This document shows positions 5,994 to 63,492 of a stretch of DNA of 64,000 bases, piece by piece. A model generated the notes under the pieces. That model saw only the letters and a list, made by a program, of their open reading frames with translations. It was not told the DNA's origin and did no database searches. A program made the translations under genes and the position numbers. The stretch's first letter is position 1, and each line of letters begins with the position of its first letter. The DNA lies in contig DASTLB010000022.1 in NCBI GenBank assembly GCA_035715365.1, forward strand, positions 16,242-80,241, given 5' to 3'. The DNA is from Kofleriaceae bacterium. Lineage in GTDB: Bacteria > Myxococcota_A > Polyangia > Haliangiales > Haliangiaceae.

Positions 5994-6005
5994 TACGGTC
6001 GCGGC

Positions 6006-6476
6006 ATGACGACGTCGCTGCAAGACACCTACGCGCCGCACGGCCGGTGCTTCGGCTGTGGTCCCGCGAACGCCCAGGGATTGCGGATCAAGAGCTTCGC
6101 GCTCGACGACACCGCGGATGCGCACGTCGTCTGCGACTTCACGCCCGAGCGTCACCACGAGGCATTCGAGAACGTGCTGAACGGCGGGATCATCGGCGCG
6201 GTGCTCGACTGCCACATGAACTGGACCACGATCCATCACCTGATGAAGAAGCAGGGCCTCGATCACGCGCCGCCGTGCGTGACCGCGGACTTCAAGGTCG
6301 TGCTGAAGCGACCGACGCCGCTCGGCCCGGTCCACGTCGACGCGCACGTCGTCTCGGCGACCGATGACCGCGCGACGATCGAGGCGACGATGACCGCCGG
6401 CGGCAAGGTGACCGCGATCGGCACCGGCACGTTCATCGCCGTGAAGCCGGGACATCCCGCGTATCACCGCTGGTAG
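6006..6476 (+). CDS. PaaI/hotdog-fold acyl-CoA thioesterase
   Basis: Size (156 aa); ...NGGIIGAVLDCHMNW... hotdog thioesterase signature; CxxC near N-terminus. Confidence 0.7.
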   Translation: MTTSLQDTYAPHGRCFGCGPANAQGLRIKSFALDDTADAHVVCDFTPERHHEAFENVLNGGIIGAVLDCHMNWTTIHHLMKKQGLDHAPPCVTADFKVVLKRPTPLGPVHVDAHVVSATDDRATIEATMTAGGKVTAIGTGTFIAVKPGHPAYHRW

Positions 6477-6534
6477 ACCGGCCTCCCGCTGCTCCCGCTT
6501 GCGCGCGGTGCGACCGCGGGACCATGCTCCCGGC

Positions 6535-7473
6535 ATGGGCGAGCTCGAGGGCGTCGTGAAGCGGGTGCCGGTCGACGATGTGACGTTCGCGGTGAGCGAA
6601 CAGGGCCATGGCGAGCCGGTCGTGTTCGTGCACGGTGACATGAGCGATCACCGGAGCTGGGGCGGTCAGCTGCCGGCGCTCTCCGAGCGCTATCGCGTGA
6701 TCACGTACAGCCGGCGGTTCGCGTGGCCGAACCCGCCGCCGCCTCCTGGCGCCGGGAATCCGCTCGAGCGCCACGCCGACGATCTCGTCGCGATCCTGCG
6801 CGCGCTCGACGCGACGCCGGCGCACCTCGTCGGCACGTCGTCGGGCGCATTCGTCTGCCTGCTCGCAGCGCGCAAGGCTCCCGAGCTCGTCGCGAGCTTG
6901 ACGCTGCACGAGCCGCCGATCGTGACGCTGTTCGTCGGACTGCCACCGACGCCCGGCGAGATCTTGCGGCTGTTGCCGAGCCGGCCGCGCACCGCGCTGT
7001 CGATCGTGAAGTTCGGCGCGCGCGTGATCGATCCGGCGACGAAGGCGTTCCGGCGCGGCGATCGCGAGGCCGCGACGCAGATCTTCGTGGGCGGCGTCGT
7101 CGGCACGGCCACGTTCGACAAGCTGCCGGAGAAGCGGCGCGAGCAGGCGCGTGCGAACGTGCCCGCGCTCGAGGCGATGCTCGTGCACGGCGGCATGCCG
7201 CGGCTCACCGAGGCCGACATCCGCGCGGTCACCGTGCCGACGCTGCTCGTCGCCGGCACGACGAGCCCGCGGCTGTTCGTCCGGCTGATCGATGCGCTCG
7301 ACGAGCTGTTACCGGATAGCGAGCGCGTCGAGATCGCGGGCGGCCACATCGCATACGAGCTCGATCCCGAGCCGTTCAACCGCGCGCTGCTCGCGTTCCT
7401 CGCGAACCACCCGATCGTGCCGGGCTCGATCCCGCGGCCGTCAGGCTCGACGCGCGCCGAACAGCCGGCGTAG
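6535..7473 (+). CDS. Alpha/beta-fold hydrolase
   Basis: HG oxyanion motif (VVFVHGD), nucleophile elbow GTSSG, C-terminal His; start reassigned to MGELEGV. Confidence 0.7.
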   Translation: MGELEGVVKRVPVDDVTFAVSEQGHGEPVVFVHGDMSDHRSWGGQLPALSERYRVITYSRRFAWPNPPPPPGAGNPLERHADDLVAILRALDATPAHLVGTSSGAFVCLLAARKAPELVASLTLHEPPIVTLFVGLPPTPGEILRLLPSRPRTALSIVKFGARVIDPATKAFRRGDREAATQIFVGGVVGTATFDKLPEKRREQARANVPALEAMLVHGGMPRLTEADIRAVTVPTLLVAGTTSPRLFVRLIDALDELLPDSERVEIAGGHIAYELDPEPFNRALLAFLANHPIVPGSIPRPSGSTRAEQPA

Positions 7474-9925: not shown

Positions 9926-11335
9926 ATGCGCGTCTTGCGAATGATCTCGGTGGTGTCGTGTCTCGTCGCGTGTGGTCACGATCCCGGCGGCGGCGGCGGT
10001 GGCGACGACGACGGTGCGCCCGACGCGGCGAGCCCGGTGAGCCCGACCGATCCGCTCGGTGGGCTACCGACCGGCGCCGAGCAATGGATGAAGCTGTGCG
10101 CGAAGGGCTACGGCGACGTGATCTCGACGAGGTTCTGCGCCGGCACGGCACCGCCGACGATCACGTCATTGAAGCAGCTCGAGACGTTCCTCGGGCTCGA
10201 CGTCGTGCCGAACCCGAACCGCGATCCGAGCCTCAACCCGAACGTGCGCGTCACGCTGACCGGCACGTCGACCGGCATCGGCCTGCGCACGGTGACGCCG
10301 CTCAACCCGCGCGCGTTCCTGATGACACCGGCGCTCGCCGGCGGCGCACCGAACCCGACGTACCAGATCATGGCGTTCGCGCGCGGCGAGCCACTCGTCG
10401 AGCTGGTCGCGAACGATCCGCAGGCGAACACGCTGCGGTTCTTCCTGCTGCGGTTCCAGCCCGCGTGCGAGGCGGCCGGCTGTTCGGCCGCGGACCTGCT
10501 GACACCGACGATCGAGTCCGGGTGGACCGGGTACACGCTGTACGACGACGACACGATCAAGAACACGACGCTCGACTGCCTCGCGTGTCACCAGGAGGCC
10601 GGGCCGGGCACGAAGAAGATCCTGCGCATGCAGGAGCTCGCGAACCCGTGGGCGCACTGGTTCTACGAGGAGCGCCCCGCGAACAAGGCGACGATCGATG
10701 ACTTCGCACGCGCGCACGGCAGCGAGGACTACGCTGGCATCCCGGCGGTCAACGTCTATCCGTCGCGGCCGTTCGCGCTCGAGACGCTCGTCCGCAACAA
10801 CGGGTTCGCGACCCAGCCGAACCTGTTCGACACGACGAAGATCCAGAACGAGCTTGCCGCGACCGGCACGAGCGCGACGTGGAACGCGCTGTACGCGAAC
10901 ACCGTCGCGGGGCGCGCGATCCCGACGCCATATCACTCGATCCCGCACACCGACGCGACGAAGACCGCGTCGATGATCCAGGCGTACCAGCAGACGATGG
11001 CCGGCACGCTGCCGCGCGACCAGATGCCGGACATCCGCGCCACGATCAAGGACAGCGCGCTGGCCGACATGTCGATCCGTCCGAAGCCCGGGCTCGACGG
11101 CCGCGGCATCCTCGTCCACATGTGCCAGATGTGCCACAACAGCCGGCTCGATCAGACGATCAGCCGCGCGAGCTTCGACGTCGAGCGGCTCGATCAGATG
11201 TCGCGCACCGAGAAGGACGAGGCGATTCGCCGCCTGCAGATGCCCGACACCGACGCGCGCAAGATGCCGCCGGTGCGGTTTCACGAACTGTCGGACGCCG
11301 AGCGCCAGCTCGCGATCGACGTGCTGAGCCAGTAG
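9926..11335 (+). CDS. Lipoprotein with two CxxCH haem-c binding motifs (putative di-haem c-type cytochrome)
   Basis: Signal peptide plus lipobox LVAC; CLACH (~res 210) and CQMCH (~res 405); GGAGG 10 nt upstream of the ATG. Confidence 0.6.
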   Translation: MRVLRMISVVSCLVACGHDPGGGGGGDDDGAPDAASPVSPTDPLGGLPTGAEQWMKLCAKGYGDVISTRFCAGTAPPTITSLKQLETFLGLDVVPNPNRDPSLNPNVRVTLTGTSTGIGLRTVTPLNPRAFLMTPALAGGAPNPTYQIMAFARGEPLVELVANDPQANTLRFFLLRFQPACEAAGCSAADLLTPTIESGWTGYTLYDDDTIKNTTLDCLACHQEAGPGTKKILRMQELANPWAHWFYEERPANKATIDDFARAHGSEDYAGIPAVNVYPSRPFALETLVRNNGFATQPNLFDTTKIQNELAATGTSATWNALYANTVAGRAIPTPYHSIPHTDATKTASMIQAYQQTMAGTLPRDQMPDIRATIKDSALADMSIRPKPGLDGRGILVHMCQMCHNSRLDQTISRASFDVERLDQMSRTEKDEAIRRLQMPDTDARKMPPVRFHELSDAERQLAIDVLSQ

Positions 11336-12742
11336 CTACTCGCCCACCGAGACGAACCGGTACCACCGGCGATCCTCGCCACGCGCCACCGCACGATCCG
11401 GGCTGTGGCGGCTGCCGAACTCGACCTTCTTCGCGAGGCCCTTGAGCCGCGGCTTGCTCGCGTCGGTGAGCGCGTTGTCGTCGAGATTCAGGTGAGACAG
11501 GTGCGCGAGCTTCGGCTTCGCATCGACGAGCGTCTGGACGCCGCGATCGCTGAGGTTGCCCATCGATAGATCGAGCGTCTTCAGCTGCTTCAGGATCTTC
11601 GATCCGACGAGCACCTTCACGAGCTCGTCGGCGAACGGGCAGTTGCGAAGCCCGAGGTGCTGGAGCTTGCCGAGCCCGGTACCGTCGAGGATCGGCTGGA
11701 TGTCCTTGGGCTTGCCGCTCGCGCCATAGTTCGGATCACCGAACCAGATCTCGAGCCGCTCGAGCTTCGGCCACTTCGCCGCCGCGATGTTGCGCAGCTC
11801 CTTGTCGTTCAGCGTGCCGGTCTCGACGCGAAACGACCGCAGCTCCGGGAGCTCGACCTTGCCGATCGTCGGCGAGCCGCCGCGCAGCGTGACCTCGCGC
11901 AGGTTCGGGACGGCCTTGCTCGCGGGCATCGCGGTCGCCGTGCCCGAGATGTCCCACTCGCCGATCTGGCCGAGCACGAGCTTGCGCAGCGCCGGCATCC
12001 CGACCTGATCGATCGCCTCCGCGAGGTAGCCGAGGTTCATCTCCTCGTCGCCCGGCAGCGGACCGAGCTCGAGCTCCTGGACGAACGCCGCCGACGCGAG
12101 CCGCAGGAACATCGCGAGCTGCTGACCCGCGCGCTCGCCCCACTCGAGGTCGTCGTCGTCGGCGACGCGCGGCCCCGCGCCCTCGGCGTCATCGTCCATG
12201 CCCCACTCGAACGCCGGCCATCCGATCCGCGCCTTACGAACGAAGCCGTGCTGCCACTCGAGCTCCCACGTCTCCGGCTTTGCCGTCGCGAACGGCCCGA
12301 GGAAGTGCTCGGCGTGTTTCGCGAGCAGCGCGTTCGCCTGCTTCGTCTTACCCGCATGCTGCAGCACGATCAGCTCGCCGCGCGGATCGCCTTGCGTCTG
12401 CAGCCAGTCGGCGTAGACCAGATACGCGTCCGCGTCGTCCGGCTTCGCGACGATCGCCTTCTCGAGCTCGGCGTTGCGCGATGCCGCCTTGGTCTCGGGA
12501 GGCTTCGCCTTGGTGGCGGACTTCGCCTTGCCACCACCGACGAGCACGTAACCCTTCTTCAGCTTCTCCTGAACGAGCTTGTCGTACTCCTTCTTGGCCT
12601 TCGCGGCATCGGGATGCTGCTTCGTCGACGACGAGACCGAGCCCGCACCGATGCGCCCCCACTTCGTCACATACGAGGCACCGCTCAGCTCGATCTCCCA
12701 GAACTTGTTCGACGTCCCCTCGCTGTACTCGTAACGTGGCAT
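11336..12742 (-). CDS. WGR-domain protein fused to leucine-rich-repeat (RNI-like) region
   Basis: N-terminal WGR signature (YEYSEGTSNKFWEIEL...KWGRIG); C-terminal LxxLxLxxN repeats (LKTLDLSMGNLSDRGVQTL...LSHLNLDDNALTD). Confidence 0.7.
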   Translation of the reverse strand: MPRYEYSEGTSNKFWEIELSGASYVTKWGRIGAGSVSSSTKQHPDAAKAKKEYDKLVQEKLKKGYVLVGGGKAKSATKAKPPETKAASRNAELEKAIVAKPDDADAYLVYADWLQTQGDPRGELIVLQHAGKTKQANALLAKHAEHFLGPFATAKPETWELEWQHGFVRKARIGWPAFEWGMDDDAEGAGPRVADDDDLEWGERAGQQLAMFLRLASAAFVQELELGPLPGDEEMNLGYLAEAIDQVGMPALRKLVLGQIGEWDISGTATAMPASKAVPNLREVTLRGGSPTIGKVELPELRSFRVETGTLNDKELRNIAAAKWPKLERLEIWFGDPNYGASGKPKDIQPILDGTGLGKLQHLGLRNCPFADELVKVLVGSKILKQLKTLDLSMGNLSDRGVQTLVDAKPKLAHLSHLNLDDNALTDASKPRLKGLAKKVEFGSRHSPDRAVARGEDRRWYRFVSVGE

Positions 12743-48808: not shown

Positions 48809-50038
48809 ATGGAGGTCGTCGCGCCGTGGTCGGTCCCGAAGCGGATCGCGTTCCGGTTCGGAGTGGTGCTCGCCGCGCTGTACATGGTTCCGCTGCCACT
48901 CGGGCTGATCCCGGGCACACAGTCACTCGCCGAGGCCGCGCAGAAGCCGCTCGCGTGGCTCGTCGTGTGGTTCGCGGACACGGTGCTCGGCGTCGGCGAG
49001 CCGGCCGTGGAGCCGACCGGCGCCGGCGACACGCTGTTCGGCTGGGTCATGATGCTCGTGCTCGTGATCCTCGCGGCGATCGGCTGCGCGGTGTGGTCGG
49101 CGATCGATCGCGAGCGCACGGCGTACCCGCGGCTCGCCGCGCTCGCGCACGTCGCCCTGCGCTACCTGCTCGCGTGGACGCTGTTCAGCTACGGGTTCGT
49201 GAAGCTGTCGCAGTTCCCGACGCCGTCGGCGTCGCGGCTCGACGGCACGATCGGCGAGATGTCGCCGATGGGCCTGCTGTGGACGTTCATGGGCTACTCG
49301 ACGCCGTACAAGGTGTTCGCCGGCATCTGCGAGATCGTGCCCGGCATCCTGCTGCTGTGGCGGCGCACCGCGACGCTCGGCGCGCTGCTCGCGATCGCGG
49401 TGCTGACGAACATCGTCATGCTGAACATGAGCTACGACGTGCCGGTCAAGCTGTACTCGATGCAGCTCGTCGCGATCGGGCTCGTGATCGCGGCGCCGCA
49501 GCTGCGCCGGGTTGCGGCCGCGCTGCTCGGCCATGCCGTGCCCGAGGTTCCGTCGCGACCCCGGCTGTCGCCGAAGCGCGAGCGCGTCCGCCTCGCGATC
49601 AAGCTCGCCGTCGTCGCGATGCTCGCGTACCAGGTCTTCGACCAGCTGACGTCGAACACGCGTCCCGCGCCGAACGCGCTCGACGGGATCTGGATCGTCG
49701 AGACCTGGCGCGCCGACGGAGTCGAGCATCCACCGCGGCTCGACGACGCCGTCCGCTGGCGCAAGCTCGCGATCAACCCGCGCTCGGTGATCATCCGGCT
49801 GATGACCGACGAGCGCCGCGGCCACGGGCTCGAGGTCGACGACCAGCAGCACACGATGAAGGTGAGCCGCGAGACCGACGCCGACGTCTGGCGCTACGTG
49901 CAGCGCGATGCCGAGCACCTCGCGATCGACGGCACGTACCGCGGCCAGCACGTCGAGGTCACGTTGCGCCGACAGCCGACGGGCCTGCTGATGTCACGCG
50001 GATTTCACTGGATCCAGGAATTCCCGTTGAACCGCTGA
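48809..50038 (+). CDS. DoxX-like N-terminal membrane domain plus soluble C-terminal domain protein (paralog 1)
   Basis: Four TM helices with a DoxX-like pattern; C-terminal ~140-aa domain; ~55-60% identical to the next gene. Confidence 0.65.
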   Translation: MEVVAPWSVPKRIAFRFGVVLAALYMVPLPLGLIPGTQSLAEAAQKPLAWLVVWFADTVLGVGEPAVEPTGAGDTLFGWVMMLVLVILAAIGCAVWSAIDRERTAYPRLAALAHVALRYLLAWTLFSYGFVKLSQFPTPSASRLDGTIGEMSPMGLLWTFMGYSTPYKVFAGICEIVPGILLLWRRTATLGALLAIAVLTNIVMLNMSYDVPVKLYSMQLVAIGLVIAAPQLRRVAAALLGHAVPEVPSRPRLSPKRERVRLAIKLAVVAMLAYQVFDQLTSNTRPAPNALDGIWIVETWRADGVEHPPRLDDAVRWRKLAINPRSVIIRLMTDERRGHGLEVDDQQHTMKVSRETDADVWRYVQRDAEHLAIDGTYRGQHVEVTLRRQPTGLLMSRGFHWIQEFPLNR

Positions 50039-50058: not shown

Positions 50059-51294
50059 GTGCACATGATGGCGACGCGCGCATGGCGAACCTGGCAGCTC
50101 GTGACGTTTCGATTCGGCACGGTGCTCGCGGCGCTGTTCACGCTGCCGTGGTTGCTGAACCTCGTCGACTACCGGCTCGCCAGGCTCGTGATGCGCCCGT
50201 GGACCCAGCTCGTGTTGTGGTTCGCCGAGCACGTGCTCGGGATCGGACGGCCACCGACCGTTTCCACCGGCAGCGGCGACACGCTGTTCGCGTGGACGAA
50301 CGCGCTCGCACAGCTGATCGTCGCCGCACTCGTGTGTGCCGTATGGTCGATCCTCGATCGACGGCGCGCCGCGTACGTGCGGCTCGCCGAGCTCGTCGGG
50401 ATCGCGCTGCGCCACGTGCTCGGTTTCGTGATGCTGCTCTACGCGGTCGCGAAGATCGCGCAGTTCTCGTACCCGAACGCGTCCCGGCTCGACGGCACGA
50501 TCGGCGAGATGTCGCCGATGGGCCTGCTGTGGACGTTCATGGGCTACTCGACGCCGTACACGGTATTCGCGGCGATCTCCGAGGGGCTCGCCGGTGCGCT
50601 GCTGCTGTGGCGACGCACGGCGGTCGCCGGCGCGCTGCTCGCGATCGCGGTGCTCGGCAACATCGTCATGCTGAACATGAGCTACGACGTGCCGGTCAAG
50701 CTGTTCGCGATGCAGCTGCTCGTGATCGCGCTCGCGATCGCGGGCCCGCACCTGCGGCGCGTGATCGGTGCGGTGCTCGGCCATGCGACGCGCGAGGTGC
50801 CGCCGCGGCCGCGGATGTCACCGACCACCGAGCGCGTCCGGACGGCGATCAAGGTCGGTGTGCTGGGTCTGATGGCGCTGCGGCTGTATGCGATCGGCGA
50901 CCAGATGCTCGCGTGGCGGCGCGAGTCCAATCCGCTCGAGGCGATCTGGGTCGTCGAGACCTGGCGCGCCGATGGCGTCGAGCACGCTCCGCTGATCACC
51001 GACCCGGTGCGCTGGCGCAAGCTCGCGATCAACGCGCGCTACCTCACCGTGCGCCTGATGACGGACGAGCGCCGGCTGCACGCGGTGCGCGTCGATCCCG
51101 AGCGCCACACGATGACGGTCAGCGGTCAGACGCTGCCCGAGATCTGGCGGTACGCGCAGCGCGATGAGGACCACCTCGCGATCGAGGGCAGCTATCGCGG
51201 TCAGCACGTCGAGGTCACGCTGCGGCGCGAGCCCGACGGTCTGCTCGTGACGCGCGGGTTTCACTGGATCCAGGAAGCACCGTTCAACCGTTGA
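50059..51294 (+). CDS. DoxX-like membrane protein (paralog 2, tandem duplicate)
   Basis: Identical stretch ASRLDGTIGEMSPMGLLWTFMGYSTPY and colinear similarity throughout with 48809..50038. Confidence 0.65.
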   Translation: MHMMATRAWRTWQLVTFRFGTVLAALFTLPWLLNLVDYRLARLVMRPWTQLVLWFAEHVLGIGRPPTVSTGSGDTLFAWTNALAQLIVAALVCAVWSILDRRRAAYVRLAELVGIALRHVLGFVMLLYAVAKIAQFSYPNASRLDGTIGEMSPMGLLWTFMGYSTPYTVFAAISEGLAGALLLWRRTAVAGALLAIAVLGNIVMLNMSYDVPVKLFAMQLLVIALAIAGPHLRRVIGAVLGHATREVPPRPRMSPTTERVRTAIKVGVLGLMALRLYAIGDQMLAWRRESNPLEAIWVVETWRADGVEHAPLITDPVRWRKLAINARYLTVRLMTDERRLHAVRVDPERHTMTVSGQTLPEIWRYAQRDEDHLAIEGSYRGQHVEVTLRREPDGLLVTRGFHWIQEAPFNR

Positions 51295-52956: not shown

Positions 52957-54078
52957 ATGACCAAGAGCGACCTAAAGCGCTTTCGGTCGAACCGCCAGCA
53001 CGAGATCGATAGCGCGGCCCAGTACCGCGCGATGGCGGATGCCGAGCCCGACGAGGGTGTCGCGCGCGTGTATCGCGAGCTCGCCGACGTCGAGGAACGG
53101 CACGCCGCGTTCTGGGAGGCGCAGCTCAAGGCGCGCGGCGTCGATCCGGGCCCGCGCCGCACGAGCTGGCGCGCGCGCGTGCTCGCGTACACCGCGAAGA
53201 AGCTCGGCGCGCGCATGATCTTGCCGACGGTGACCCAGCGCGAGGTCGCCGGCCGCAACGACTACGCGAGTCAGTCCGAGACCGAGCACACGAGGATGAC
53301 CGCGCAGGAGCGCTCGCACGCGCGCGTGCTGCAGGCGATGCTGCGGCGTCCCGAGGGCGCGCCCGGCAGCGAGCTCGCGCGCGTCGAGGGCCGGCATCGC
53401 AACGTCGGTGGCAACGCGCTGCGCGCGGCGGTGCTCGGCGCGAACGATGGCCTGTGCTCGAACCTCGCGCTCGTCATGGGCGTGGCCGGTGCGACGCCGA
53501 GCGCGCACGCGATCCTGATCGCCGGCGTCGCCGGGCTGCTCGCGGGCGCGTTCTCGATGGCGCTTGGCGAGTGGATCTCGGTCAAGAGCTCGCGCGAGCT
53601 GGCCGAGCGCGAGCTCGAGGTCGAGCGCGACGAGCTCGCAGCCGCGCCCGAGGAGGAACGCGAGGAGCTGCAGCTGATCTACGAGGCGAAGGGCATCCCG
53701 AAGCACGAGGCGAAGCAGCTGTCGAAGAGCCTGCTGCGCGATCAGGGCGCCGCGCTCGACGTGCTCGCACGCGAGGAGCTCGGCCTCGATCCCGACGAGC
53801 TCGGCGGCTCGCCGTGGACCGCCGCGGTGACGTCGTTCATCCTGTTCTCGATCGGCGCGATCTTCCCGGTGCTGCCGTTCATCTTCGACACCGGCACCGG
53901 CGCGATCGTGATCAGCATCGTGCTGTCCGCGGTCGTGCTGTACGGCATCGGCGCCGCGATCACGCTGTTCACCGAGCGGCCGGTCTGGTTATCCGGCGGC
54001 AGACAGATGCTGCTCGGGCTCGCGGCCGCCGGCATCACGTTCGGGCTCGGTCGCTTGCTCGGCGTCGCGCTCGGTTGA
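52957..54078 (+). CDS. mbfA: Erythrin-VIT1 fusion (MbfA-like membrane-bound ferritin / iron exporter)
   Basis: N-terminal ferritin/rubrerythrin-like E-x-x-H diiron motifs (…ELADVEERHAAFWE…, …ETEHTRMTAQERSHARVL…) followed by a CCC1/VIT1 transporter domain with TM helices. Confidence 0.75.
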   Translation: MTKSDLKRFRSNRQHEIDSAAQYRAMADAEPDEGVARVYRELADVEERHAAFWEAQLKARGVDPGPRRTSWRARVLAYTAKKLGARMILPTVTQREVAGRNDYASQSETEHTRMTAQERSHARVLQAMLRRPEGAPGSELARVEGRHRNVGGNALRAAVLGANDGLCSNLALVMGVAGATPSAHAILIAGVAGLLAGAFSMALGEWISVKSSRELAERELEVERDELAAAPEEEREELQLIYEAKGIPKHEAKQLSKSLLRDQGAALDVLAREELGLDPDELGGSPWTAAVTSFILFSIGAIFPVLPFIFDTGTGAIVISIVLSAVVLYGIGAAITLFTERPVWLSGGRQMLLGLAAAGITFGLGRLLGVALG

Positions 54079-54080
54079 CG

Positions 54081-54572
54081 ATGATCCGGCTCCCGTTCGT
54101 CCGCCAGCAGCACGCCCACACGTGCGGTGCCGCGGTCGTGCTCGCGATCGCGCGCGCGCACGGCGTCGGGCCGGCGACTGAGGCCGAGGTCGCGGCGGAC
54201 ATGGCGATGACGCCCGACGGCAGCGATCCGGCGCAGCTCGTCGGTGCGCTCGCGCGCTATGGCCTCGCGGTGCGCGAGCATCGCGGCATGACGCTCGACG
54301 AGCTGATCGCGTATCTCGACCGCGGCGTGCCGGTGATCGTGATGCTGCAGGCGTGGGCGGATCCGCGCCCGGTGTCGTACGCCGATCACTGGGACGACGG
54401 CCACTGGGTCATCGCGATCGGCCACGCCGGCGACCGCATCCACTTCATGGATCCGATGCTCGACGTCCGCGGCACGCTGACGCGCAGCGCACTGCTCGAG
54501 CGCTGGCACGACGTCGAAGGTCCCGAGCGCGCGCACGTCGAGCGCTACGGCCTCGCGGTGTGGCGCGCCTAG
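54081..54572 (+). CDS. Stand-alone peptidase-C39-like (papain-fold) domain protein
   Basis: Q(x5)C catalytic region QQHAHTCGAAVV, His in DDGHWVIAIGH, Asp in FMDP; 163 aa; start 3 nt after the mbfA stop. Confidence 0.65.
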   Translation: MIRLPFVRQQHAHTCGAAVVLAIARAHGVGPATEAEVAADMAMTPDGSDPAQLVGALARYGLAVREHRGMTLDELIAYLDRGVPVIVMLQAWADPRPVSYADHWDDGHWVIAIGHAGDRIHFMDPMLDVRGTLTRSALLERWHDVEGPERAHVERYGLAVWRA

Positions 54573-54573
54573 A

Positions 54574-55917
54574 TCACAGGCCGAGCGCCCAGCCGAGCGC
54601 GCTGCCGACGAGCGCGAACGCGACGAGATCGATCTCGGCGGACACCTCGACCGAGCGCTCGCCGTCGCGGCCGAACCGCGTGTCGACGCGAAACCCGATC
54701 GGCAGATCGATCCGATCGAAGTCGCGGAAGCTGTGACGAAATCCGAGGAACGCGCCCGCGGCGATCCCGCGATCGACGACCTCGCCGGACCGGCGATACA
54801 CGCCGACCGACGGCACGAGCGCGATCCCGCTCGTGTAGCTCGCGTACGTGAGCCCGGCGCCGACGACCGGCTCGTCGTCGACGCGCAGCAGCTCGCCGTA
54901 GATCCCGAGGCCATGGCCGCGGCCGACGTGATGCAGCGAGCGCTCGGAGACCAGCCGCGCGAAGATCAGCTCGCCGCGCAACCCGGTCAGCAGGCCGGCG
55001 CCGTCGTGCGACGCGCCCCCGAGCAGACCGGGCACGCTGAGGAACACGAAGTTCTGCTTCGGCCGCGCACGGTCGGCGGTGTGATCCGGCGGCGTGGCGA
55101 CGTACTGCGTCTCCCACGCGGCCGACGCGTCGCGCAGCGCGTCGTCGCCGCCGACGTACGCCGCGACGAACGCGACCGTGCGCGCGTAGATCGCGGCCAT
55201 CCGCAGACGGTGGAGCTCCCAGCGATCCTGCGCGTGCTCGGCGGTCTCGCCCGGCGGCGGCGGCGCGCGACACGGCAGCGGATCGGAGTCGACGTCGCAT
55301 GGCGTCGCATCGACCACGACGAACCGCGTGCGCGACGGCGTGCCGGTCGCCGCGATCGCGAGCGTCGGCGTCTCGGGCACGTCGCGCGCCGCCTCGTCGA
55401 GGATCGTCAGCACCGCCGCGAGCGGCCGGCGCGTCGCGAGCGCGCGCACCGCGGCTCCGCCGCCGGCGCCGATGCCGATCGCGCCGATGACGTCGGTGCG
55501 CTGGCAGCCCGGCTCGCGCGCATCGGGCTCGCTCGCGAGCGCCTGCTCGAGCGCGTCGGGATAGCGGGCCGGCTCGCGCGGCGGCGCCACGACGATCACG
55601 TGGAGCCCGGCCTCCGCGAGCTGCGTCGCCGCGACGTTCGCCTGCTCGAAGCGCGCGCCGAGGTCCGGCGCGATCACGACGACCGGATTCGGATCGGTCG
55701 TGTGCGGACAGTACGCTTCGAACGCGACGTCGCGAAACCGACTGTACGGATGATCGCGGCGCGCCGGATCGCGTGGCGCGCCGGGCCCGGGCGCGATCCG
55801 GATCGCGACGCTCGCATCGGCGACGCCGGCCAGCGAGACGAGCGCGATCGCGACGAGCCAGCGCACGCACCGACGGTAGCGGCCGCGCCGCGGTGCGCCG
55901 GCGGCAAACGCCGTCAA
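54574..55917 (-). CDS. Secreted hypothetical protein
   Basis: TTG start gives a signal peptide with Arg-rich n-region (MTAFAAGAPRRGRYRRCVRWLVAIALVSLAGVADA); alternatively the GTG at 55866. Upstream part of track ORF is junk. Confidence 0.45.
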   Translation of the reverse strand: MTAFAAGAPRRGRYRRCVRWLVAIALVSLAGVADASVAIRIAPGPGAPRDPARRDHPYSRFRDVAFEAYCPHTTDPNPVVVIAPDLGARFEQANVAATQLAEAGLHVIVVAPPREPARYPDALEQALASEPDAREPGCQRTDVIGAIGIGAGGGAAVRALATRRPLAAVLTILDEAARDVPETPTLAIAATGTPSRTRFVVVDATPCDVDSDPLPCRAPPPPGETAEHAQDRWELHRLRMAAIYARTVAFVAAYVGGDDALRDASAAWETQYVATPPDHTADRARPKQNFVFLSVPGLLGGASHDGAGLLTGLRGELIFARLVSERSLHHVGRGHGLGIYGELLRVDDEPVVGAGLTYASYTSGIALVPSVGVYRRSGEVVDRGIAAGAFLGFRHSFRDFDRIDLPIGFRVDTRFGRDGERSVEVSAEIDLVAFALVGSALGWALGL

Positions 55918-56080
55918 CGCCAGGCTGGTGTCGACCCGGCGGGCTGCATCCCTCGGTAGACGAGTCGCGGCGCTGTCACCCGCGGCGAACAGGCCAAGTC
56001 GGCGAGATCGCTCGCGGCTGGCCGTGGCACGTCGGCTGCTGTGGACCTGGGGCGACGTAGCCGACGAAGGACACCACCCC

Positions 56081-56407
56081 ATGTCGAACTCGAAGTCGAA
56101 CCCCAGAAAGCCCAGCCGACCGGAGCCCACCGGTTTTCAGAGCATCGATCCCACGAGCCTCGCGACGGTCAGCGGCGGCGCGAGCCGGGTCGCGACCGCG
56201 AGCCAGGGCGGCGACACCTCGGTCACCGACGCGCTGAACGGGATCCTCGACTCGCTCAAGTCGCTGCAGGGTCAGCAGCAGTCCGGCTTCGGCCCGACGG
56301 AGATGATGATGTTCATGATGCTGATGGCCGGTCGCCAGCAGCCTCAGGTCGTCAGCACGATCCCGAACGGCGTCACGATCGACGGCCGCTGGTACCCCTT
56401 CAAGTGA
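56081..56407 (+). CDS. Small protein (108 aa) with candidate double-glycine leader and Met-rich core
   Basis: GAAGGA RBS 9 nt upstream of ATG; no hydrophobic Sec signal; ...FQSIDPTSLATVSGG has hydrophobic residues at -4, -7, -12 and -15 from GG; core has MMMFMMLMAG. Confidence 0.45.
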   Translation: MSNSKSNPRKPSRPEPTGFQSIDPTSLATVSGGASRVATASQGGDTSVTDALNGILDSLKSLQGQQQSGFGPTEMMMFMMLMAGRQQPQVVSTIPNGVTIDGRWYPFK

Positions 56408-56416
56408 TCACTTGAA
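56399..56416. repeat. Perfect 18-bp palindrome TTCAAGTGATCACTTGAA spanning the convergent stop codons of two genes
   Basis: Seen directly in sequence; both convergent ORFs therefore end in ...FK-stop. Confidence 0.6.
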
Positions 56417-56782
56417 CCAGATCGTGTCGGCGAGCCACTTGCCGTCGACCTTCACGAGCGTCGTCAGCGTGCGGCCGTTCTTCATCTTGATCTTGATCTG
56501 GTCCTTGCCGCCCTGCACCGAGGCGACGAGGTCATCGATCGTCATCGAGCCGATCTGACCTTGCGCCTTCTTCACGTTCTCGTCGGTGATTCGATCCTGC
56601 AGCCGCTTCGTGAACCCGGCCTTGAGCGCCGCGACGTCCGCCTTCTTGATCAGCTCGACCTGCTTGCCGATGAATGCCTTCGCATCGGCGAGATCGTCGG
56701 CGTGCGCGGGCGCCGCGACGAAGCCGAGCACGAGAACAGCGAGCGCGAGGATCCGGAACACGTGGGTCATGGCCGCGAACAT
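56408..56782 (-). CDS. Small secreted Lys-rich protein (124 aa)
   Basis: Signal peptide MFAAMTHVFRILALAVLVLGFVAAPAHA; natural composition. Confidence 0.5.
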   Translation of the reverse strand: MFAAMTHVFRILALAVLVLGFVAAPAHADDLADAKAFIGKQVELIKKADVAALKAGFTKRLQDRITDENVKKAQGQIGSMTIDDLVASVQGGKDQIKIKMKNGRTLTTLVKVDGKWLADTIWFK

Positions 56783-56865
56783 GCCGGACGCCCTCGTTCG
56801 ATGCCAGCGCACCGAGCGGATTCGCTCGCCCCCTGCGGGCACGACGTTTGCTGCCCTTGCCCGGC

Positions 56866-57618
56866 ATGCACTCCGCGACCGAGCCCCAGCAGGCGACGCT
56901 CCCGTCGATCTTCGATCACTTCCCGCGGCCCGCGACGATCGGCAACCCCGCGGTAGAGCAACGCAACCTCGGGTTCTGGGCGGGGCTGCTCGCGATCGCG
57001 GCCGGCACGGGCGCAGCGACCGCGCTCGGTGCCGGCAAGCGCGGCGTCGTGACGGGAGGTGTCGCGGCGCTCGCGCTCGGTGCGCTGCGCTGGCAACTGA
57101 GCCGCTGGTTCACCCACACCCCGCAGTACGTCGTCGAGCAGCGGCTCGGCGACCTCGAGATCCGTCGTTATCCGATGCGGATCGAGGCGCGCGCCGGCAT
57201 CGACGAGCATGACTTCGAGAAGGCGCTCGCCCGCGGGTTCGGCCGGCTCGCCTGCTACAGCTTCGGCGCGAACAGCCACCACGAGGATCTCGCGATGTCC
57301 ACGCCGGTGATCACGACGATGCACGACGGCGCGTACACGATGGGCTTCGTGATGCCGCCCGGCCGCGACCTCGGCTCGCTGCCGCGCCCCGACGATCCGC
57401 GGATCCACCTGCGCGAGGTGCCCGAGCGCCGGATCGCGGTGCTGAAGTTCCGCGGTCCGTTCACGCGCGCGAACATCGAGGCGCACGAGGGCGAGCTGCT
57501 GCGCAAGCTCGTCGATGCCGGGCTGTCCGCGCGCGGCTCGGTCGCGTTCGCTGGCTACGACTCGCCGATGACGCTACCGCTGTTGCGTCGCAACGAAGTC
57601 TGGATGGAAGTGGTGTAG
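56866..57618 (+). CDS. SOUL/HBP-family haem-binding-like protein with N-terminal membrane anchor
   Basis: YVVEQRLGDLEIRRYP ... FGRLACYSFGANS...LAMSTPV matches SOUL family conserved blocks; two N-terminal hydrophobic segments. Confidence 0.6.
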   Translation: MHSATEPQQATLPSIFDHFPRPATIGNPAVEQRNLGFWAGLLAIAAGTGAATALGAGKRGVVTGGVAALALGALRWQLSRWFTHTPQYVVEQRLGDLEIRRYPMRIEARAGIDEHDFEKALARGFGRLACYSFGANSHHEDLAMSTPVITTMHDGAYTMGFVMPPGRDLGSLPRPDDPRIHLREVPERRIAVLKFRGPFTRANIEAHEGELLRKLVDAGLSARGSVAFAGYDSPMTLPLLRRNEVWMEVV

Positions 57619-57662: not shown

Positions 57663-57986
57663 TCAGCGACGCGTGAGCCCCCACAGCAGGCCCAGCTCGC
57701 GATCGAGCAGCTCGCGTGCGCGTTCCGCGTGCAGCGTGACGCCCCACGCTTCGGCGAGATCGAGCCCGCTCTGGATCTCGTTCGCACTACCGTGCGCGAT
57801 CGTGAAGAACCGCTTCGGATCGCGGCCCGCTCGGCGCGCGCCTTCGCCGACGTTGAGGACGACGCTGTTCGCAGCGCGACGTACCTGATCGGCGAGATCG
57901 GGATCGTGCTTGTTGAGCTCCTCGACGATCGGGCGCAGCGCGCGAACGAGGTCGAGACCTACGGTGTATGCGGCGAAGTTCTTCAT
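57663..57986 (-). CDS. Four-helix-bundle protein (TIGR02436 / PF05635, 23S-rRNA-IVS / bAvd-like), copy 1
   Basis: 107 aa; ...RAANSVVLNVGEGARRAGRDPKRFFTIAHGSANEIQSGLDLA... family pattern; GAAAGGAA RBS; upstream part of track ORF is an antisense repeat artefact. Confidence 0.7.
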   Translation of the reverse strand: MKNFAAYTVGLDLVRALRPIVEELNKHDPDLADQVRRAANSVVLNVGEGARRAGRDPKRFFTIAHGSANEIQSGLDLAEAWGVTLHAERARELLDRELGLLWGLTRR

Positions 57987-58284
57987 GACGGGCCATTCCT
58001 TTCTTTCCCCAAGCTCCTCCGGCCTCCCGGAGCGGGCTCGGCTCTCGCCCGAACGCGGCCGCCGCGCGGGAGCCGTGACGAGCGCCCGCACCACCGTGCG
58101 CGCTCTGATCCGGCGTTCATCTGTGCGGCGGCGATTCGCGTGACGTCGGCGCCGGTGGCGCTCGGCGCGGCGCACGCGCCAGGCGGACGCGAGGGCGAGC
58201 CGAGCCCGCGGAGGGCCAGAGCACGAGTCGAGGATCTGGGCGCGTTCGCCGATGAGCCAGTGATCCCGCGAATCGTGATCGATT

Positions 58285-58440
58285 CCGGCCGCGACCGATG
58301 CCGTCACCGATACCGATGCCGTCACCGACACCGATGCCGATGCCGTCGCCGCGACCGATGCCGTCACCGATGCCCTCGCCGCGACCGAGGCCGTCACCGC
58401 GGCCGACGCCGTCACCGCAACCGATGCCGTCGCGGCGGCT
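58285..58440. repeat. Microsatellite-like tandem repeat, ~18-bp unit (CCGATGCCGTCACCGAYA), ~8-9 copies
   Basis: Seen in sequence; translates as (PMPSPx)n on plus and (DGIGxG)n on minus, both within non-credible ORFs. Confidence 0.6.
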
Positions 58441-58580
58441 CTCGTGCGTCGCACGGAGGTCGCGCATCAACCGGCGACTCGCGCTCGCGGAACGGGCGCG
58501 ATCCGGCGCACGCCTCGACGGTGATTCGCGGGCCCTCGCGCGAGCTGCTTTGCGACGGCTCGGTCGGCTCGCTCGTGCGG
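58441..58580. repeat. ~135-bp direct repeat, copy A (partner copy B at 59251..59385; degenerate copy C ~58105..58150)
   Basis: By-eye alignment of CTCGTGCG.CGCACG...TCGCGCATC...TCGCGCTCGC.GAACGGGCGCGATCC.GCGC.C.CCTCGACGGTGATTCGCGG... shows ~75-80% identity between copies A and B. Confidence 0.5.
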
Positions 58581-58766: not shown

Positions 58767-59090
58767 ATGGCCTTTGATGCATATGACCGTTCGCTCGAAC
58801 TTCTGCACCTGATCGCCGCACTGCTCAAGAAGCTCGCCAAGCGCGACGCCGACCTCGCGAAGCAGCTACGTCGCGCTGCGCACAGCGTGCCGCTCAACAT
58901 CGTCGAGGCAAATCGGCGCACCGGACAGGATCGCGCCCATCTGTTCCGCGTCGCGCTCGGCTCCGCCGCCGAGGTCGGCGGCTGCCTCGATGTCGCGGTC
59001 GCGCTCGCGTACGTCGAGCCCCACGAGGTCGAGTCCGCGCACGCGCTGCTCGATCGCGTGCGCGCGATGACCTACCGGCTATCGCGGTAA
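58767..59090 (+). CDS. Four-helix-bundle protein (TIGR02436 / PF05635, bAvd-like), copy 2
   Basis: 107 aa; ...RAAHSVPLNIVEANRRTGQDRAHLFRVALGSAAEVGGCLDVA...; AAAGGAGG RBS 7 nt upstream; paralog of 57663..57986. Confidence 0.75.
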   Translation: MAFDAYDRSLELLHLIAALLKKLAKRDADLAKQLRRAAHSVPLNIVEANRRTGQDRAHLFRVALGSAAEVGGCLDVAVALAYVEPHEVESAHALLDRVRAMTYRLSR

Positions 59091-62639: not shown

Positions 62640-62841
62640 CGTGCACGCGCTCACATGTCTGCCGGAATGGGCAGGTGTGCCGTGGTCTCGTCGAGAACTG
62701 CGGGGCGTTTGGCCTCGCGACGTGATTCTGTGGCGTGAACGCGACGATCACGCGGTCACAGTCGCGTTCACGATCCGGAGCATGCGTGAACGATCTCGAC
62801 GAGTCATGGCACTGGCACGCTGGATGCTGGAAGATACGTCC

Positions 62842-63492
62842 ATGCTTCGATCCATCCTACCTGCCCTGTTTGCTGCGACCCTGGCCGGCGGTTGTTATGC
62901 AACGACCTCCGGCGGCGTCGCGTACAGCGGCTCGGTGACGGCGACCACGGTCGCGCCTGACCTCGTCTACGTGGGTCCGGGCGTCCAGGTGATCGCCGAC
63001 TACGACGAGCCGATCTTCTACTCGGACGGCTTCTACTGGCGGTATTACGGCAACACCTGGTACCGCTCGAGCTACTACACCGGCGGCTGGGTCTACGCGT
63101 CGCCGCCGCGCGCAGTGCTGAGCATCAACTCGCCGCACACGTACGTGCGCTACCGGCCGAACGGCTGGCGGCCGCGCAACGGTGGCTACCGCAACGACGG
63201 CGCGTACGTGCGCGACCATCGCGACTCGCCGCCGGTGTACCGCGACGATCGTCCGGTCGTGCGCGACCATCGCGATCCCGCGCCGCCGGTGTATCGCGAT
63301 GATCGCCCGGTCGTGCGCGACCATCGCGATCCCGGCCCGCCGGTCTACCAGCAGCCGCAGCGCGACAACCGCCCGGTCGAGCGTGACCATCGCGACAACG
63401 CGCCGGTCGAGCGCGACCACCGCGACAACCGCCCGGTCGAGCGCGACCACCGCGACAACAAGCCGACGGTGCCCGTCCGCGACCACCGCTAG
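62842..63492 (+). CDS. Lipoprotein with Tyr/Trp-rich domain and C-terminal RDHRD tandem repeats
   Basis: MLRSILPALFAATLAGGC lipobox; start could also be ATG 62824; C-terminal ~54-bp and ~27-bp DNA tandem repeats encode PVVRDHRDPAPPVYRDDR x2 and PVERDHRDN x3. Confidence 0.55.
   Translation: MLRSILPALFAATLAGGCYATTSGGVAYSGSVTATTVAPDLVYVGPGVQVIADYDEPIFYSDGFYWRYYGNTWYRSSYYTGGWVYASPPRAVLSINSPHTYVRYRPNGWRPRNGGYRNDGAYVRDHRDSPPVYRDDRPVVRDHRDPAPPVYRDDRPVVRDHRDPGPPVYQQPQRDNRPVERDHRDNAPVERDHRDNRPVERDHRDNKPTVPVRDHR

Follow-up and report, generated by a model that had tools for sequence, protein, structure and literature searches.

A double-glycine-leader peptide gene with a methionine-run core and a sigma-54-type promoter in a Kofleriaceae bacterium, and the unannotated family to which it belongs

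We analysed a 64,000-nucleotide stretch of a Kofleriaceae genome (assembly GCA_035715365.1, contig DASTLB010000022.1, positions 16,242 to 80,241 of the forward strand; hereafter the window) around a small open reading frame (ORF) that an initial annotation, made from the sequence alone, had put forward as a candidate double-glycine-leader peptide gene lying near a stand-alone C39 peptidase. On the forward strand the locus holds a gene for a VIT1-family metal exporter, the C39 peptidase gene, a conserved regulatory cassette and the peptide gene itself (Table 1). What the initial annotation had stated descriptively about the peptide and C39 ORFs proved correct throughout, including the strong ribosome-binding site, which reads AAGGA and lies within a AAGGACACCACCCATG block that is kept in most loci of an alignment of eight upstream regions. 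The GC content of the peptide ORF by codon position (0.92 at third positions, 0.54 at first and 0.52 at second) is the coding signature of this high-GC genome, and a database entry identical to the 108-aa product exists as P0001, "hypothetical protein VFQ53_07965". A longer, GTG-initiated version of the ORF (159 aa, 55928-56407) was dropped, because M1-S2 are invariant and the conservation upstream of them is at the DNA level, in the promoter and box described below.

Table 1. Features of the peptide locus in the window and the positions of a possible accessory lipoprotein gene in related loci.
Feature	Position	Strand	Basis or remark
VIT1-family metal exporter with N-terminal ferritin-like region	52957-54078	+	PF01988, E = 7.8e-70
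Stand-alone C39 cysteine peptidase, 163 aa	54081-54572	+	PF13529, PF03412; neighbour, membership in the peptide system doubtful
Enhancer-like (upstream activating sequence, UAS) box GCATCCCTCGGTAGACG	55946-55962	+	~80 nt upstream of the sigma-54-type promoter
Second upstream box GCGAGATCGC	56002-56011	+	GAGATC.C invariant in alignment A2
Sigma-54-type promoter TGGCACGTCGGCTGCT (-24 GG / -12 GC)	56025-56040	+	GGCA and TGCT invariant in alignment A2
Ribosome-binding site AAGGA	56067-56071	+	9 nt before the ATG; read from the sequence
Peptide ORF, 108 aa	56081-56407	+	ATG at 56081, stop 56405-56407
Double-glycine leader, residues 1-33, ending FQSIDPTSLATVSGG	56081-56179	+	predicted cleavage after G33
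Core, 75 aa and stop	56180-56407	+	starts with linker; family alignments
Amphipathic helix, residues 46-64	56216-56272	+	family alignments, AlphaFold2 secondary structure
Met-run MMMFMMLMAG, residues 75-84, within the helix at residues 72-85	56303-56332	+	alignments, AlphaFold2
C-terminal beta-hairpin and aromatic tail ...DGRWYPFK	end of core	+	alignments, AlphaFold2
~340-aa lipoprotein	L001 10356-11396; L003 1335-2369; L005 114-1133 (-); L007 10357-11391		
~340-aa lipoprotein, further loci	L010 8825-9838 (-); L021 about 10339-11349		

The end of the predicted leader, FQSIDPTSLATVSGG, spans residues 19-33 and places hydrophobic residues at -15 (F19), -12 (I22), -7 (L27) and -4 (V30) before the glycine pair G32-G33, exactly the spacing that had been claimed for it. 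Residues 1-18 (MSNSKSNPRKPSRPEPTG) are polar and lack a hydrophobic core, and inspection of this N-terminus by eye revealed no Sec-type region, as had also been stated. Peptidases of the type found in LahT150 and in ATP-binding cassette (ABC) transporters that contain a peptidase (PCATs) need a GG, GA or GS motif together with hydrophobic residues at -4, -7 and -12 (PMC10885120). Scans of the peptide against Pfam and NCBIfam assigned it to no family, the sole NCBIfam match at E<=1 being a spurious one to PsbH; this match and the GET2 (PF08690) labels carried by some homologs were discarded as artefacts of Met-rich composition.

Sequence searches placed the peptide in a large family. A first search returned five homologs, with Q.IDPT.L..VSGGA in the leader and EMMM.MM in the core (as FG..EMMM.MM) invariant. 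A profile search of 1.84 billion representative sequences gave 267 matches at E<=1e-3, 56 of them at E<=1e-10, and a profile search of 90 %-identity clusters gave at least 864 related clusters, every one of which is labelled hypothetical. The leader-peptide/protease pair had been called unexpected in a myxobacterial-like genome, a view that we had to abandon given the size of the family and the fact that the sources that name an organism are, without exception, Kofleriaceae and Deltaproteobacteria metagenome-assembled genomes (MAGs). Among the first 156 family sequences, 153 show the hydrophobic pattern followed by GG (150) or GA (3), with the leader ending at a median position of 22, and across all family sequences fetched (the initial annotation had recommended comparing this site across orthologs) the pattern with its GG or GA is present in 268 of 269, which marks the gene as a genuine double-glycine-leader gene. 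Composition statistics were drawn from those 265 of the 268 leader-bearing sequences whose core is 40 residues or longer; F/L, I, L and V occupy -15, -12, -7 and -4, respectively, in 235 of them. The leader, with the family consensus M-[SP]-K...[LF]-Q-[TS]-I-D-P-x-x-L-x-x-V-[ST]-G-G, is the most conserved part of the peptide family; because of this conservation, and because it fits the rule for C39 peptidases (PMC10885120), we take the GG motif to be a functional site and no chance match. On these comparisons of sequence, the peptide gene is conserved and is a real member of an unannotated Myxococcota family of double-glycine-leader peptides. The window contains only one copy of the family. 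Second, divergent copies (e.g. MSNLLVPVEAQLLATVTGG...) lie 5-6 kb from the main copy, each with a sigma-54-type promoter, in L008 (10676-11011), L009 (7155-7502), L010 (3665-3928) and L007 (15932-16273), all on the minus strand (L numbers designate the individual loci collected).

Behind the leader, family members follow a common order: an Ala/Ser/Thr linker, an amphipathic helix (TALTGILDSIKSL) and a polar N/Q/S/G stretch, then a Met-run (EMMMFMMMM), QQRNQQ or poly-Gly, and an Ala/Pro stretch, before a short aromatic/basic C-terminus such as PIVYY, GYWIVK, TIDGVYYPFK, KKGW or VKRRW. The cores are rich in Q, N, G and M, and at least six Met fall within some 12-residue stretch in 217 of the 265; the Met-rich segment MMMFMMLMAG that the initial annotation had pointed out in the window peptide is indeed there. 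An AlphaFold2 model of the peptide (mean predicted local distance difference test score, pLDDT, 65.6) leaves the leader unstructured and returns the two helices and the C-terminal hairpin listed in Table 1, and because of this pLDDT it was used for secondary structure only. Reading the peptide as a ribosomally made peptide that is modified after translation (RiPP) was rejected, because no RiPP enzyme family was recognised among the called neighbours in the window, L001, L003, L005 and L010-L013 and because the window core, like 167 of the 265 cores, is devoid of Cys.

Alignment of the 235 nt that lie 5' of eight peptide genes (alignment A2) brought out three conserved elements ahead of the peptide ORF. 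The core of the enhancer-like box, GCATCC-N4-GTAGACG, is invariant at its core positions in all eight loci, and the pattern GHRTCC-N4-GTAKRCG has one match in the window versus 0.06 expected. Likewise, the pattern TGGCACG-N4-YTGCW has a single match in the window, at the sigma-54-type promoter, versus 0.02 expected. In 13 distinct loci, the DNA upstream of the main peptide gene carries the enhancer-like box once. The distance from the sigma-54-type element to the ATG is 31-61 nt in the relatives checked, among which are paralogs and second copies lying a few kb off. A search of 55800-56900 revealed no sigma-70-like site. We conclude from these alignments that the peptide gene has a sigma-54-type promoter of its own together with a conserved upstream box; the second box (GCGAGATCGC) is a possible activator or integration host factor (IHF) site.

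Two other genes touch on this cassette. The ORF listed on the opposite strand between the C39 and peptide genes (518 aa, 54574-56130) overlaps the enhancer-like box and the sigma-54-type promoter, and because this conserved cassette overlaps them, its first ~87 codons appear to be noncoding; the probable true start is a GTG near 55870, which would endow the protein with the signal peptide MRWLVAIALVSLAGVADA. The protein matches no Pfam or NCBIfam family above threshold. We rejected the gene as part of the peptide system, since it is absent from the syntenic locus L001, and for the same reason the gene (54574 to about 55870) looks to have been gained by insertion between C39 and peptide. Further downstream, a ~190-aa lipoprotein gene (62842-63423, plus strand; ...PDLVEVSPGVQVVADYDEPVFY.DGFYWR..WYRS..., with an Arg-rich tail) is preceded by a sigma-54-type promoter of its own (TGGCACGCTGGATGCT, 62813-62828) and by an upstream palindrome (GTGAACGCGAC..GTCGCGTTCAC, an inverted repeat at about 62737-62780). 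In L006-L010, L021, L022 and L024, homologs of this lipoprotein are encoded a few kb or less from the peptide gene, and a sigma-54-like promoter was found before those that were checked (L006-L010). The lipoprotein may be part of the peptide's sigma-54 regulon or of one parallel to it.

Evidence on export came from more distant members of the family. P0186 and P0205, the latter from the Deltaproteobacteria MAG GCA_019637375.1, belong to loci L011 and L012/L013. L012/L013 encode a 775-aa PCAT (Peptidase_C39, ABC_membrane and ABC_tran domains), a 630-aa HlyD-like adaptor and an OEP/TolC-family outer-membrane factor, as well as a leucine-rich-repeat (LRR)-like lipoprotein and a 510-aa protein, and L011 has the same layout. 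The exporter genes are followed by the family peptide and by two to four further small GG-leader ORFs (two or three in L012/L013), some of which are Met-run paralogs; one resembles classical microcins in being Gly-rich. L011 and L012 also contain small ORFs, of 37 and 84 aa, whose hydrophobic products could be immunity proteins. This is the layout of a standard Gram-negative bacteriocin or type I secretion locus. In L011, L012 and L013 the enhancer-like box (in inverted orientation) and the promoter stand 5' of the peptide gene, and both recur 5' of the PCAT gene. Because family members cluster with PCAT type I secretion genes, we read the family leader as a PCAT export signal, and because the PCAT and peptide genes carry the same cassette, a single enhancer-binding activator appears to control peptide and exporter as one regulon. 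The initial annotation had proposed a search for an exporter that lacks its own C39 domain: an exporter did turn up, in these relatives, as an ordinary PCAT complete with that domain.

The reading that we favour, and that we regard as probable though well short of assured, is that the window gene encodes a sigma-54-controlled, unmodified peptide secreted through a PCAT/type I system whose genes lie outside the 64-kb window. According to this model, an enhancer-binding activator, also encoded outside the window, would switch on the peptide gene and a PCAT/type I system elsewhere in the genome, the PCAT's own C39 domain would cut after Gly33, and the 75-residue unmodified core would be exported from the cell by the PCAT system to act, with its amphipathic helix, Met-run helix and aromatic tail, outside the producer. 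Orphan GG-peptide genes that rely on a distant transporter occur in other bacteria.

Several observations weigh against this model. First, the exporter for this genome is assumed and not seen, because the 64-kb window contains none: a tblastn search of the window with the L012 proteins (PCAT, adaptor, outer-membrane factor, LRR lipoprotein and 510-aa protein) matched only the C39 ORF and the peptide, with PCAT, adaptor and TolC-like genes absent, and the LSGGQ motif of ABC ATPases was not found in the six-frame translation. Second, no PCAT, adaptor or TolC-like gene lies within ~10 kb in those loci of the Kofleriaceae clade that have long flanks, and the distinct loci in which a PCAT was seen to be linked number only two and are mutually related. 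Third, a search of the window's six-frame translation for the GAFTGA motif turned up no gene for an enhancer-binding protein. Fourth, curated leader and bacteriocin models (e.g. TIGR01847), the comparison that the initial annotation had recommended for the N-terminus, gave no match to the peptide, a null result that counts little because such short models are insensitive. Finally, in two lineages a GG-type, apparently active C39 peptidase is encoded close to the peptide gene, at a distance of 183 bp in L001 and of 1.5 kb in the window, and the C39 genes of the window and L001 belong to different subclades and are not sisters (neighbour-joining tree, no support values), which could mean that C39 was repeatedly recruited into the gap between VIT1 and peptide.

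The C39 protein itself scored 36.5 bits against PF13529 (cut-off 24) and 33.8 bits against PF03412 (cut-off 22), so that the hidden Markov model (HMM) comparison recommended at the outset put it above both gathering thresholds, and an entry identical to it is P0270, "C39 family peptidase". As described initially, it is not fused to an ABC exporter: its 163 aa include no transmembrane or ATPase domains, and all 45 homologs are likewise free-standing (172-240 aa, nearly all 172-209 aa; the named ones are Kofleriaceae). Q9, C15, H108 and D124 are invariant in 26 homologs, and in alignments they match the Q..C, H and D residues of both LahT150 and the peptidase domain of a PCAT. A confident structural model (pLDDT 94.7, pTM 0.91) found its best solved-structure matches by Foldseek in the peptidase domain (PEP) of ComA, in PCAT1 and in LahT150 with leader peptide (top matches 3k8u, 8vp5 and 6mpz; E = 1e-7 to 3e-6, target-normalised TM about 0.8), 6mpz being also the best match by sequence, and more distant fold matches included PeiR, phytochelatin-synthase-like proteins and staphopain. 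The papain-fold C39 domain with an intact Q/C/H/D set that had been proposed is borne out by the invariant residues and by the double-glycine leader peptidases that are its closest structures. In fold and in its Q...C...H...D arrangement the protein resembles LahT150 and the ComA and PCAT1 domains; unlike these, it is naturally free-standing and apparently co-transcribed with the VIT1 gene, its ATG lying 2 nt after the VIT1 stop codon. It is closer to PF13529/DUF3335 by virtue of extra residues inserted ahead of the catalytic His and of a C-terminal extension that is conserved (RWHD.EG...RYGLAVW). Since it has no signal peptide, the protein is probably cytoplasmic, and probably an active papain-fold peptidase. 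By the layout of these genes, C39 is predicted to be part of the VIT1 transcription unit, and the peptide gene to be served by its own sigma-54 cassette.

These properties invite a rival explanation, in which the stand-alone C39 protein would be a dedicated leader peptidase that cuts after G33 in the cytoplasm and a transporter without a C39 domain would export the core. The complete catalytic set, the structural likeness of the model to the double-glycine peptidases ComA PEP, PCAT1 and LahT150, and the finding that excised C39 domains act in trans (LahT150; passages of PMC6363468, and PMC10885120) are all consistent with this explanation, as are the proximity of the two genes and the position of the window and L001 C39 genes in separate subclades of the neighbour-joining tree. 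The distribution of the genes argues otherwise. We collected 20 distinct peptide loci, in part through a locus search with a narrower alignment that gave at least nine metagenome loci, and mapped their neighbours by tblastn and the family HMM. A stand-alone C39 gene lies near the peptide in only two of the 20 (window and L001), and in five (L020, L022, L024, L027 and L028) VIT1 is followed after 115-180 bp by the peptide with no C39 between them. Conversely, a family peptide is missing from six of the eight C39 loci: in L014, L016 and L017 the C39 gene has BolA and an M1 aminopeptidase as neighbours, its surroundings in L029 and L018/L019 are unrelated, and L030 reproduces the synteny of the window (GNAT-VIT1-127 aa-C39-p122-SOUL) with no family peptide (hmmsearch, E<=10). 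Moreover, the window C39 gene, placed in the VIT1 unit, has neither the upstream box nor the sigma-54 cassette, ordinary PCATs accompany family members in other loci (L011, L012/L013), and PF13529-type proteins include some that are not leader peptidases, as the fold matches to PeiR and phytochelatin-synthase-like proteins illustrate. The dedicated protease/peptide pair suggested initially is thus weakly supported, and we consider it unlikely that the C39 protein serves the peptide in this way; that it lies close to the peptide gene most likely reflects no more than the variability of the syntenic block. Full-text literature searches returned no matching paper, either for a C39 leader peptidase that stands alone or for a GG peptide rich in Met. 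The C39 homologs of L018/L019, on contigs of 150-190 kb, are the most distant ones (35 % identity) and are encoded around 6001-6588 in a long run of small same-strand ORFs, in surroundings that gave almost no Pfam matches and look like DNA of a phage or other mobile element.

As to what a PCAT-exported core might do, we favour a bacteriocin or class II microcin-like role or one in cell-to-cell signalling, and rank matrix and metal or oxidant roles after these. Like the GG peptides exported by PCATs (class II bacteriocins, class II microcins and competence pheromones), the window peptide has a GG leader with the hydrophobic residues at -4, -7, -12 and -15, no Sec signal and a small (75 aa), apparently unmodified core, and the genes of its relatives cluster with those for a PCAT, an HlyD-like adaptor, a TolC-like factor and other GG peptides. 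It differs from known bacteriocin and microcin families in matching none of them, nor any TIGR01847-type model, and from known PCAT peptides in the poly-Met helix of its core, of which no description was found in the literature searched, in its dedicated sigma-54-type promoter and enhancer-like box and in its Myxococcota producers; in the clade of the window, moreover, the gene stands as an orphan with no exporter close to it, and no immunity gene was recognised. A 2025 microcin survey (PMC12219008) makes no mention of Myxococcota or methionine.

A second rival explanation keeps the secretion route and changes the function: the product would be a secreted matrix or developmental protein with a GG motif, similar to EbfG, whose Q/N-rich, aggregation-prone core serves myxobacterial multicellular behaviour and not as a toxin. 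Sigma-54 control is typical of developmental genes in myxobacteria, the cores are rich in Q, N, G and M, and paralogs occur in arrays. There is also a precedent in Synechococcus elongatus, in which, according to passages of PMC4997328, small GG-motif proteins secreted by a PCAT enable biofilm formation: EbfG1-4/PteB likewise involve small GG-motif proteins with several paralogs in a Gram-negative bacterium, and EbfG1-4 depend on a C39-type transporter and are not necessarily antibiotics (same passages). By contrast, the Synechococcus proteins come from another phylum and share no sequence similarity that we could find with the window peptide; no similarity to any characterised matrix protein was seen, and the clusters of several GG peptides with a PCAT (L011, L012) are equally typical of bacteriocin loci. 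We consider a matrix or developmental role rather unlikely, below a dedicated C39 peptidase in our ranking.

The neighbourhood of the peptide gene across the 20 loci bears on a third rival. The commonest neighbour is VIT1, adjacent to the peptide in nine loci (window, L001, L005, L010, L020, L022, L024, L027 and L028), in two of which (L005 and L010) it converges on the peptide from the other side. A SOUL haem-binding protein is encoded near the peptide in seven loci (window, L001, L006, L008, L009, L020 and L028), a 346-aa lipoprotein in six (L001, L003, L005, L007, L010 and L021), a GNAT protein directly upstream in three (L006, L008 and L009), and PCAT, adaptor and outer-membrane factor in two (L011 and L012/L013). 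The window, L001, L006, L008 and L009 have in common a GNAT ... peptide ... SOUL backbone with a varying interior. On these grounds the peptide could be assigned to metal or oxidant homeostasis, its Met-run binding Cu(I) or Ag(I) or acting, like MrpX, as a sacrificial methionine sink, in concert with VIT1 and SOUL. Consistent with such a role are the frequency of VIT1 in two orientations and of SOUL, the Met-runs that are the hallmark of the cores and the precedent of MrpX of Azospira suillum, a Met-rich peptide that acts as an oxidant sink, likewise short and with a dedicated stress-type regulator (PMC4436054). However, the VIT1 and SOUL loci all come from one fairly narrow clade, in which shared ancestry could explain the synteny, and both genes are absent from the PCAT-linked loci. 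Furthermore, MrpX is periplasmic, which implies a Sec signal, and works with a methionine sulfoxide reductase (PMC4436054), whereas the window peptide has a GG leader, and neither methionine sulfoxide reductase nor copper genes were seen among the six neighbouring proteins scanned. We judge a metal or oxidant function of this kind improbable, and place it after the matrix role.

An extension of this idea would make the VIT1-(C39)-peptide arrangement itself functional, with a sigma-54-induced peptide of the envelope or the extracellular space that binds Cu(I) or Fe or serves as a methionine sink alongside VIT1, and with maturation by C39 independent of an ABC transporter in some lineages. We hold this to be the least probable of the readings weighed here; if true, the VIT1-linked C39 and peptide would constitute a leader-peptidase/peptide module that is not built on a PCAT.

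The mechanism class invoked in our favoured model of PCAT export, namely GG leader, C39/PCAT transporter and type I secretion, is established, double-glycine peptides and PCAT exporters being well known from Gram-positive bacteria, enterobacteria and cyanobacteria. New are a family without name or model, its poly-Met core, the sigma-54 and enhancer cassette shared with exporter genes and, as far as named sources show, its restriction to Myxococcota; for a Met-run family in these predatory and social bacteria we found no Pfam or NCBIfam model and, in the literature searched, no paper. With at least 864 clusters, a sharp leader and a cassette that also marks exporter genes, the family defines a regulon to look for (activator, exporter and other cargo), and it supplies a set of unmodified peptides of 45-100 residues as antibacterial, signalling, matrix or metal-binding candidates. 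If active on such leaders, the free-standing C39 family could serve as a natural trans-acting leader peptidase. Should the ordinary reading be right, the outcome is a useful annotation and a new bacteriocin-like family, with no new principle.

Several further genes around the peptide gene deserve mention. The conserved ~340-aa lipoprotein (the 346-aa lipoprotein above; lipobox ...ACG; faint PPC-domain match only) is encoded immediately beside the peptide in six loci (Table 1) and may, for some family members, be an accessory or immunity-type partner. Compared with L001, the window has lost it, and its absence there led us to reject it as an obligatory partner. No small membrane protein that could be an immunity candidate is encoded adjacent to the peptide in the window. 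Downstream of the peptide, a gene on the opposite strand that most loci lack encodes a soluble-looking protein of ~121-144 aa (the length varies with the start codon chosen), the N-terminus of which resembles a signal peptide. Two tandem genes (48809-50038 and 50059-51294, plus strand), located a short way upstream of the GNAT gene, encode paralogous ~410-aa membrane proteins with common motifs such as GTIGEMSPMGLLWTFMGYSTPY and WRKLAIN. Finally, 58288-58439 is taken up by a tandem repeat that is imperfect, has units such as CCGCCACCGATGCCGTCA and shows periods of 12, 18 and 30 nt; it lies between the ORFs 57663-58454 (minus strand) and 58767-59090 (plus strand), the products of which look, by eye, like four-helix-bundle (23S rRNA IVP-like) proteins.

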